DNA from: Escherichia coli O127:H6 str. E2348/69
Lineage (GTDB): Bacteria > Pseudomonadota > Gammaproteobacteria > Enterobacterales > Enterobacteriaceae
Strand: one strand, 5' to 3'
NCBI RefSeq assembly: GCF_000026545.1
Contig: NC_011601.1
DNA length: 64,000 nt
Below, in pieces: positions 42,901 to 45,900 of this stretch. A program made the position numbers. Position 1 is the stretch's first letter. Every line of letters begins with the position of its first letter.

Positions 42901-45900
42901 AGGAGCAGCACTAACACCTTTAGGTTTGGGAATTAAACCTTTTTCTCCATGTTTTTCATAGAGGGCAACCCATGTCCTGACCTGGGTTCGGGGGACACCA
43001 AAACGTGCCGAGATGATCCTGTAACCATCATCAGTAGTGAAGTAGTGATTCACGACTTCAAGGCGCTTTTCAAAAGGGTATTTTGGCTTTGACATATCAG
43101 GGGCTATTCCATTTCATCGTCCAACAAAATGGGTGCAGTACAGTTGATAGAAATATCGGTCGGGGCCTTCGTCTTTCTGATTCCCGGTTAGCCTGAAAAC
43201 AGAAAGTCTCAGGCACCCGTGAGCATCCTATGTGGTTTCCTTAGGGTCGAAAATAATCACCTGACGAAATTGCGTGCTGTTTTCCAGAATTTTTCGTCAT
43301 TCGGTTTAGTCAGTTTAATCATTCGTTACTCTCGCAAGGCCGTGGATTTGCCGTTGTCGCCAGCGAAGTACGGACACTCGCAAGCCGCAGCGCCCAGACG
43401 GCGAAAGAGATTGAAGGCTTGATCAGTGAATCAGTCAGGTTAATTGACCTGGGATCGGATGAGGTGGCAACGGCAGGGAAAACCATGTGCACTATTGTTG
43501 ATGCCGTCGCGAGTGTCACACATATCATGCAGGAAATCGCCACCGCCTCGGATGAACAAAGTCGAGGCATAACGCAGGTTAGCCAGGCGATTTCTGAAAT
43601 GGATAAGGTGACGCAACAGAATGCTTCTCTGGTAGAAGAGGCCTCAACGGCAGCGGTGTCCCTTGAAGAACAGGCGGCACGATTAACTGAGGCGGTGGAC
43701 GTATTCCGTCTGAACAAACATTCTGTGTCGGCAGAACCTCGCGGAGCTTGTGAACCAGTTAGTTTTGCTACGGTGTGAAAATGTTAAAGGAGGGATCGAC
43801 AGATCCCTTCACCTTTCAGAACGGCATTGATTTTCGAATAGCGTTAATCATCAACTGGCAACCAGAAGAGAACGTCGCATCTACGCGGGTCAGTATTCCA
43901 ATCGGTTCGCCTGCACCATGTCCCGGAACAGGCAGGGCTACCAGCGTGGCATGACGCAGGTCGTCTTTTACAGCGCCAGAAGGGACAAACCACACGTAAT
44001 CGTATTCAACCGTAAGTTGACGAGATAGCGAAGCAGACAGCGTTTCGATACAACCCGAAGGAATTTTACATCCCTGGCTCTGCACTAATGCATCTGAATG
44101 CTGGCGTGGCGCAGTGCCTTCTGGTGATACAACGACCGGCCATTCCAGCACCCGGTTTAGCGTTACGTTCTCCTGAAGTAGCGGGTGATTGGGGCGGACA
44201 ACCAGCTTCAGCGATTCAAGAAACAGCAGTTCGTAATTAAGCCCGTTCATCAGTTCAGGATCTGACATCCGACCAATGCCGATATCGATTTCCCCGGTTT
44301 TTAAACCCGCCAGAATCATAGGGTTACTCATTGTCGCAACTTGCAAGGTCGTCTCTTTTTGTTGCTGATGAAACTGACCTATAACCGAAGGTAATATCCC
44401 TAGTGCCGCAGTAGGTAGCGCACCAACCCTGACGACATCATTATTAAGACCTTCTTTACGATGAAGCGACTGTCCGGCAGTGTTGATGGCGTCAAGAACT
44501 CTGACTGCATGCGTTAAAAATTGTTCGCCGGGTAAGGTAAGTTGCGCCCCCTGACGACCACGCTCAAACAAGCGAGCGCCCGTCAGCTGCTCCAGTTCAT
44601 TCAATGTCTTAGAGAGCGCAGGTTGACTCAAATTAAGGGTTTCAGCCGCGCGCCCCAAAGTTCCTTGTTGTGCGACAGCTACGAATGTATGAAGGTGGCG
44701 CAAACGGATGCGCTGACTAAACAGACTATTTTTTTCCATAAGCGATGTTAAAAACGAAGCGGTGTCGCTGACAAGTGAAGTTGTTTTATTATGATAACTT
44801 GATTGCAAAATATTATTAACAATTAAAGCAACTATGTTACAGCAAAATGGATAATATTGATGTTTTCGCGGCGAGATCACAGTTTGTAAATTCTTCCAGC
44901 CGGAGTGAATGCGGTTACCTACACTCCAGATTACTGACCACTGGAGGCAGACACTATGGCGAACAGCATCACGGCGGATGAGATTCGGGAACAGTTTTCG
45001 CAGGCAATGTCAGCCATGTACCAGCAAGAAGTTCCGCAGTACGGCACGCTGCTGGAACTGGTAGCTGATGTAAATCTGGCGGTGCTGGAAAACAATCCTC
45101 AACTGCACGAAAAAATGGTAAATGCAGACGAGCTGGCGCGACTGAATGTTGAACGTCATGGGGCTATTCGCGTTGGGACTGCACAAGAGCTTGCTACTCT
45201 TCGGCGGATGTTTGCCATTATGGGGATGTACCCGGTGAGCTATTACGATCTCTCGCAGGCGGGAGTGCCGGTACATTCCACAGCATTTCGGCCCATTGAT
45301 GATGCTTCTCTGGCGCGTAATCCCTTCCGCGTTTTTACCTCATTACTCCGCCTTGAGCTTATCGAGAACGAGTTATTACGCCAGAAAGCGGCGGAGATTC
45401 TGCGTCAGCGCGATATCTTCACCCCACGTTGTCGACAACTGTTAGAGGAATATGAGCAGCAGGGCGGTTTTAACGAAACACAGGCACAGGAGTTTGTGCA
45501 GGAAGCCCTGGAAACGTTTCGCTGGCACCAGTCAGCAACGGTAGATGAAGAAACCTATCGCGCCTTGCACAACGAACATCGGTTGATTGCTGATGTGGTC
45601 TGTTTTCCTGGATGCCATATCAACCATCTGACGCCACGTACGCTGGATATTGACCGGGTGCAGTCGATGATGCCTGAATGCGGAATTGAACCCAAAGTGC
45701 TGATCGAAGGGCCGCCGCGCCGCGAGGTGCCGATTTTACTACGCCAGACCAGCTTTAAAGCACTGGAAGAGACGGTGTTGTTTGCGGGGCAGAAACAGGG
45801 CACGCATACCGCGCGCTTTGGTGAAATTGAGCAGCGTGGTGTGGCATTAACGCCGAAAGGGCGACAACTGTATGATGATCTTCTGCGGAGCGCTGGAACC

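Follow-up and report, generated by a model that had tools for sequence, protein, structure and literature searches.

Trg is a galactose/ribose receptor (PMC3559539), and its loss together with that of Tap in uropathogenic Escherichia coli (UPEC) and in phylogroup B2 is attributed to Lane et al. (2006, J Bacteriol 188:5618) and Borziak et al. (2013) in the passages of PMC12623472 and PMC3559539 that cite them. More recently, Lee et al. (2025, EMBO J, PMC12623472) reported that the truncated trg of B2 strains is the gene for Tls (Trg-like signaling protein), which represses flagellar genes through sequestration of FlhDC. The activity of Tls requires the nine-residue TlsN (MNVRIVLLS, in which Arg4 is essential) joined to Trg residues 400-546 (PMC12623472). 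A variant N-terminus attributed to strain E2348/69, TlsN*, gave neither polar localization nor repression, in an assay that relied on a plasmid-borne mCherry fusion in MG1655 rather than on the native E2348/69 locus (PMC12623472). The main text of that study treats the region as one deletion, with TlsN found in the majority of B2 strains.

The DNA next to trg is also a described target of IS150. A single coordinate designated 'trg/mokB' was hit by this element in five independent laboratory lineages, with hokC and hokE hit as well (Finn et al. 2017, PeerJ, PMC5419217), and hokB/sokB is listed as commonly hit in the Lenski long-term lines as well (bioRxiv 10.1101/027086).

Here, we analyzed the trg locus in a 64,000-nucleotide stretch of the chromosome of E. 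coli O127:H6 str. E2348/69 (NC_011601.1), referred to below as the window. The truncated gene found there is real, ordinary and already known, E2348/69 included. It shares with the truncated trg of B2 and UPEC strains, as these are described in the passages cited above, the locus, the junction to codon 400, the loss of the receptor and a former designation as a pseudogene. E2348/69 differs in being an enteropathogenic (EPEC) strain within B2 and in carrying a nest of insertion sequences (IS), founded on IS150, in the hokB leader; nothing essential differs.

A C-terminal fragment of trg at its native locus

In the RefSeq annotation (NZ_CP059840.2), the gene order in the window is ydcA, a Hok-family toxin, IS fragments, a methyl-accepting chemotaxis protein (MCP; incomplete, missing N-terminus), ydcI, hglS and opgD, and K-12 keeps the matching order hokB/mokB/sokB, trg, ydcI. 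The interval and its flanks are 100% identical to E2348/69 (EPEC O127:H6). The window differs from NZ_CP059840.2 by one 1-bp indel, located within the IS nest, and coordinates borrowed from that annotation have a precision of ±1. Synteny is anchored by the native downstream neighbor of trg, the LysR-family regulator gene ydcI (43816..44739, minus strand), and comparison with K-12 places the remnant in the native hokB-trg-ydcI-hglS position.

The original prediction, made from the sequence by eye, held that trg is reduced here to a C-terminal piece, and alignment to the intact gene bears this out. The boundary has to be moved, however, from 43143 to 43334. The remnant spans 43334..43778 on the plus strand and consists of the last base of codon 399, codons Q400 to V546 and the stop, corresponding to K-12 trg nucleotides 1197-1641, with a nucleotide identity to K-12 trg of 97.3% by blastn. 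From 43334 to 44000, the window is colinear with K-12 positions 4667-5333 at the same 97.3%, on through the trg-ydcI spacer and into ydcI. A codon-by-codon comparison found no stop or frameshift inside the 147-codon remnant, the reading frame of which closes at TGA 43776-43778, and six amino-acid changes relative to K-12 Trg (A421T, S451C, A469T, A504T, H526N and G538C).

About 170 codons of signaling domain had been predicted to remain. Translation does give an open frame of 173 codons on the plus strand (43257..43778, with codons to 43775), but only 147 of these are trg-derived and they cover half of the domain, the first 26 open codons being read-through of non-coding DNA. Of the two upstream bounds proposed for the fragment, the in-frame stops are present (43194, 43242 and 43254), whereas the end of IS150 does not abut trg and is separated from it by 191 bp of hokB/sokB and intergenic DNA.

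The extent of the surviving domain can be followed in the profile matches. The match to Pfam MCPsignal (E-value of 1.9e-28) begins only at profile position 66 and runs to position 172 of 172, and matches to the full-length MCP models of NCBIfam are limited to model positions of about 390-530, at about 190 bits against cut-offs of 900. The first transmembrane segment (TM1), the periplasmic ligand-interaction domain, TM2 and HAMP are all missing from the locus, as had been stated, K-12 trg nucleotides 1-1196 being absent. The break sits in codon E399, inside the conserved AGEQGRGF motif, which we take to be the tip of the MCP signaling hairpin. The hairpin is incomplete, with its C-terminal half alone and not both antiparallel helices present; the surviving piece is only the C-terminal helix of the signaling hairpin, not the whole signaling domain.

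Conserved MCP domains invite a different assignment, in which the fragment comes from another MCP paralogue (tsr, tar, tap or a horizontally acquired gene) and an intact trg lies elsewhere; indeed, the 147 residues of the remnant also match the Tar, Tsr, Tap and citrate-transducer models of NCBIfam. Against this stand the 97.3% identity to K-12 trg, which continues into the spacer and ydcI at the native locus, and the finding that a query containing the trg 3' end aligns to a single place in each of three E2348/69 assemblies, with no second trg copy detected at megablast sensitivity. The original prediction had named an intact trg elsewhere, together with evidence for a different MCP paralogue, as what would speak against it; the fragment is trg, and we regard a paralogous origin as exceedingly improbable.

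The 5' end of the remnant is a deletion junction at 43333..43334, defined by the breakpoint sequences relative to K-12 and reading ...CATTCGTTACTCTC|GCAAGGCCGTGG... The K-12 segment missing from the window (3334-4666, 1333 bp) comprises 137 bp upstream of trg and trg nucleotides 1-1196, and the gene's own promoter region (those 137 bp) and ATG are gone with it. No microhomology to either parental breakpoint was seen at this blunt junction, which lies 191 bp from the end of IS150.

IS150 in the hokB leader and the probable order of events

The 191 bp between IS150 and the remnant (43143..43333) are native, non-trg DNA, made up of hokB/sokB leader (minus strand) and intergenic sequence and colinear with K-12 L003 3143-3333 at 94.2%. 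Positions 43143-43218 are the upstream half of the hokB mRNA leader/sokB, and the remainder is hokB-trg intergenic DNA; the K-12 annotation on L003 places sokB at 3120-3176 and the mokB start at 3130. Alignments and translation locate the hokB coding region at 37308..37452 on the minus strand, with a 5-bp deletion just past the ATG that causes a frameshift, and PGAP calls a 44-aa Hok protein there from a downstream GTG, with a match to the NCBIfam Hok model. The IS nest parts hokB from its own leader and promoter. Rfam 'sok' (RF01794) is complete in the uninterrupted locus of another strain (L002 5925-6076, 109.7 bits); in the window, the match runs from 43218 only as far as the end of IS150, and its 55.9 bits fall short of the gathering score of 59. 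A hok/sok locus in the sense of a contiguous hok leader/sok region upstream of hokB is not present in the window.

The nest is an IS150 copy on the minus strand (37526..43142), delimited by blastn with the intact 1443-bp IS150 of strain CP53 and expanded to 5617 bp by nested insertions. IS150 nucleotides 1-5 start at 37526 (TGTAC) and are interrupted after position 5 by an IS3-family element (37531-40152) that has a TAC duplication at its flanks and carries ISEc21 at about 37850-39210. Judging from its OrfA and inverted repeat (IR) sequences, this element is presumably IS911-like. IS150 resumes with nucleotides 3-583 (40153-40722), is interrupted by ISEc13 (40723-42272), at the flanks of which CCTCTGTAAG is duplicated, and is completed by nucleotides 574-1443 (42273-43142), with IRL ending at 43142. 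Element names follow PGAP (NZ_CP059840.2) and family matches follow Pfam and NCBIfam. The nest holds four IS elements altogether in 5.6 kb.

GTT is present on both sides of IS150, as had been noted, with the left copy at 37523..37525 and the right copy at 43143..43145, and the flanks of the nest overlap by exactly this GTT on the empty sites of strains MS 16-3 and A25. The GTT duplication is thus a real target-site duplication and IS150 a simple insertion into the hokB leader, with both ends of the element, a 3-bp direct duplication and a matching empty site in relatives all found. The pre-insertion arrangement, which the original prediction proposed to seek in related genomes, is preserved in A25. 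This strain carries all of the E2348/69-specific SNPs of the remnant and junction (43310, 43318-19, 43683, 43739, 43742 and 43748-49). Its IS150 site is nevertheless empty, with GTT in one copy (CCTCGGTTGATAG), and its hokB is undamaged.

We surveyed 5426 complete E. coli genomes for these arrangements. The identical junction occurs in 602 of them (100-mer centered on the junction, full coverage), and in 76 of the 602, the IS150 end, the 191 bp and the junction are found together (391-mer, full coverage), which leaves by subtraction about 526 genomes, such as MS 16-3, that have the junction without IS150. The IS150 end with its flank (100-mer) is fully covered in 1002 genomes, at an identical site and in an identical orientation, and CP53 has an intact trg beside an intact IS150 with the GTT duplication. 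All four combinations of IS150 present or absent and trg deleted or intact exist. The deleted 1333 bp were found in 4501 genomes and are lacking in 925; the latter are nearly all explained by the 602 single-deletion genomes and 308 genomes with a second deletion, the 1333-bp deletion being common to about 900 E. coli genomes.

IS elements do make adjacent deletions, and IS150 lies close to the truncated gene, so that IS150 might itself have truncated trg in this way, with the matching GTT being accidental. This was one of two scenarios raised by the original prediction, which put such a coincidence at 1 in 64. The junction, however, is 191 bp from IS150 with native colinear DNA between, the same junction is present in the 526 IS150-free genomes, A25 combines this allele with an unoccupied site and only one GTT, and CP53 has IS150 at the same site beside an intact trg. 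The empty-site alleles rule out an IS-mediated deletion as the cause of the trg truncation, and this scenario keeps a negligible probability. The other scenario, in which IS150 came to a locus where the hokB leader already adjoined the trg fragment, is correct, although the GTT that had been offered as its evidence gives no information on a trg junction 191 bp away. It is the empty site in A25 and the 526 IS150-free junction genomes that make the trg deletion older than the arrival of IS150, and parsimony accordingly favors an order of deletion first and IS150 later.

Occupancy of the site in 1002 genomes, its occupancy beside an intact trg in CP53 and the hits in laboratory lineages show the hokB leader to be a hot spot that IS150 enters repeatedly, whether or not trg is deleted. 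Insertions of IS150 at chromosomal hok/sok loci have reportedly also been described by Schneider et al. in 2000 and by Pedersen and Gerdes in 1999. The insertion in E2348/69 resembles the known ones in that IS150 lies between trg and mokB/hokB and cuts hokB from its leader and promoter; it differs in that IS150 has itself been hit by three more IS elements and in that the neighboring trg was already truncated. The IS150 near the remnant therefore arrived later, at a known hot spot, and is unrelated to the truncation.

Rather than by new transposition, IS150 might have been imported from another lineage, through homologous recombination with a hokB allele that already carried the element. Such an import would fit the identical site and orientation in 1002 diverse genomes, the existence of all four IS150/trg combinations and an 'AT' at 43318-43319 that E2348/69 shares with CP53. 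That 'AT' is also found in the IS150-free A25, however, and E2348/69 retains B2-type SNPs close to the insertion, at a distance of 75 bp on the right and 190 bp on the left, which would make the imported tract very short; moreover, repeated de novo insertions of IS150 at trg/mokB make the hot spot a sufficient explanation (PMC5419217). We consider import unlikely and prefer new transposition.

The locus would then have arisen in three steps. One ancient 1333-bp deletion would have taken the trg promoter region and codons 1-399, and with them the transmembrane helices, the periplasmic sensor, HAMP and the whole N-terminal helix of the signaling hairpin, fusing the hokB upstream region to codon 400 in an allele that was passed down in much of phylogroup B2. 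Much later, and only in the E2348/69 lineage, IS150 would have entered 191 bp upstream of the junction as a simple insertion with GTT duplication, and three further IS elements would subsequently have entered that IS150 copy.

Expression and function of the remnant

The open frame contains no ATG, GTG or TTG upstream of a TTG at 43419. The only non-canonical 'starts' upstream of 43419 are ATT codons, one of them at 43299 (ATT-CGG-TTT-AGT...), and the TlsN* peptide maps to the frame that begins with this codon. No obvious Shine-Dalgarno sequence was seen in the 20 bases upstream of either ATT codon. A scan of the plus strand from 43000 to 43900, limited to the sigma-70-type consensus, found no sigma-70-like promoter, and the 5.6-kb IS nest would shut the locus off from upstream plus-strand transcription. 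From these features, we infer that the remnant is neither expressed nor functional. Our main reading, to which we assign a probability of roughly 0.88, is that 43334-43778 is all that is left of the chemoreceptor gene trg, a piece of its 3' end, and is inert.

Having no promoter or canonical start, and retaining only one of the two helices that contribute to a four-helix bundle, the remnant cannot act as a chemoreceptor. Since there is no second copy of trg in the three E2348/69 assemblies, Trg-dependent taxis toward ribose and galactose should be lost in this strain, in agreement with the original prediction. E2348/69, like other B2 E. coli, would thus be unable to use Trg for ribose and galactose taxis, which has little import for the strain.

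The intact 147-codon frame is no evidence of constraint; at a divergence of about 2-3%, neutral DNA would be expected to stay open as well. The remnant holds too few substitutions to tell relaxed from purifying selection. On the features of the sequence, some residual function of the remnant would seem improbable.

The E2348/69 allele and a proposed origin of Tls

The remnant shares the Trg 400-546 fragment, from the same primary deletion, with the Tls of UTI89, CFT073 and S13. In those strains, a second deletion of 297 bp gives the GTG start and TlsN, whereas E2348/69 is without both. The double-deletion class comprises 308 B2 genomes, including CFT073, Nissle 1917, IHE3034 and ATCC 11775. 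As seen in GABEEC132 and in this class, the second deletion brings GTG-AAT-GTC-AGA-ATC-GT, which lies antisense within hokB, up against GTTACTCTC, the last 9 nt before the original trg junction, so that the GTG is in frame with the trg tail; there is no microhomology at the 297-bp junction. The window still holds the 297 bp, minus the 5-bp hokB deletion and split by IS150, and consequently has neither TlsN nor a canonical start.

Because the 9 nt preceding the junction are kept in the double-deletion allele, that allele must derive from the single-deletion allele, and the window therefore represents the older state, without TlsN. We somewhat favor the view that the E2348/69-type allele is a surviving intermediate in the birth of Tls, in which the 1333-bp deletion was followed by the 297-bp deletion in a B2 sublineage. 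If so, about two-thirds of trg-truncated RefSeq E. coli genomes would be without a functional Tls, and Tls would be a dated example of a gene born from a pseudogene. This two-step origin is modestly new, as is the count for complete genomes, in which alleles with only the first deletion (602) are more numerous than those of the Tls type (308).

One might instead suppose that the remnant encodes a working Tls-type regulator, started at ATT 43299 or at another non-canonical codon. Residues 400-546 of Trg are the same part that is used in Tls and in the constructs of Lee et al. (PMC12623472), the remnant frame is intact, the homologous fragment is functional as Tls in other B2 strains, and a protein that begins with TlsN* is publicly annotated for E2348/69 (PMC12623472). 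Tls activity, however, lies in TlsN with its Arg4, which TlsN* does not have, and TlsN* was negative when assayed (PMC12623472). The second deletion, the source of TlsN and of the GTG start, is not in the window, and the ATT 'starts' come without an obvious Shine-Dalgarno sequence or a promoter-like site and have the IS nest upstream. We judge a working regulator of this kind to be very unlikely and keep to the reading of an inert remnant.

As the ancestral state of Tls, the locus separates B2 genomes that have a dead tail of trg from those that have a rebuilt gene, and TlsN* can serve as a natural negative control for Tls function.

The locus is not mentioned in a report on an ST131 strain from spinach (PMC10591226). 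Some of the 602 single-deletion genomes in our survey are labelled ST131.

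IS150 at the hokB/sokB leader

Of 5426 complete E. coli genomes, 1002 carry IS150 in the hokB/sokB leader, always at an identical GTT site and with matching orientation. The site corresponds to the target duplication at window 37523-37525 and 43143-43145 in E2348/69 and is represented by comparison loci L005 and L004. At least one of the 1002, CP53, retains an intact trg beside the occupied site. Insertions of IS150 at "trg/mokB" have also been gained again and again in laboratory evolution lines (PMC5419217). Taken together, hok leaders look like a strong target hot spot for IS150.

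Strain 2014C-3011 (L004 3194-4003) has lost trg by a different route at the same locus. Only a short end fragment remains of the IS150 that occupies the hokB site in this strain; it adjoins IS2 and prophage genes, and the features annotated on that side do not include hokB. The full-length trg adjoining the fragment is annotated with an internal stop.

Decay of hokB and IS150 in E2348/69

In E2348/69, a 5-bp deletion directly after the hokB ATG (window 37440-37452, minus strand) causes a frameshift; K-12, CP53, A25, and MS 16-3 all lack this deletion. The hokB/sokB locus of this strain is thus inactivated twice over, by the frameshift and by the IS150 cut, even though PGAP still annotates a Hok protein of 44 aa that starts at a GTG farther downstream.

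The insertion itself (window 37526-43142) is a nest of four IS elements. An IS3-family element, which we take to be IS911-like from its OrfA and inverted repeat sequences, interrupts the right inverted repeat of IS150 at position 5, with a TAC duplication, and itself harbors ISEc21. ISEc13 lies within IS150 orfB, where it duplicated CCTCTGTAAG. These nested insertions leave this IS150 copy dead.

The second deletion and neighboring annotations

A second deletion, of 297 bp, is present in 308 genomes, including CFT073, Nissle 1917, IHE3034, and ATCC 11775, and is seen in GABEEC132 at L006 3990-4020. Out of sequence lying antisense to hokB, it built the GTG start of Tls, the Trg-like flagellar-gene repressor, together with the N-terminal peptide TlsN. 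The GABEEC132 60-mer, matched without mismatch in 214 of these 308 genomes, differs at Trg codon 402, where CCT (Pro) replaces CGT (Arg); this codon belongs to a conserved motif that presumably lies at the hairpin tip of the signaling domain.

Hits to RF01794, the "sok" model of Rfam, fall on the hokB mRNA strand (window 43143-43218; L002 5925-6076), opposite the K-12 sokB annotation. The model therefore seems to represent the region that leader and antisense RNA have in common, not just the antisense RNA. Finally, a single 1-bp indel, inside the IS nest, separates window 37143-43142 from the RefSeq E2348/69 assembly NZ_CP059840.2, probably reflecting an assembly or version difference.
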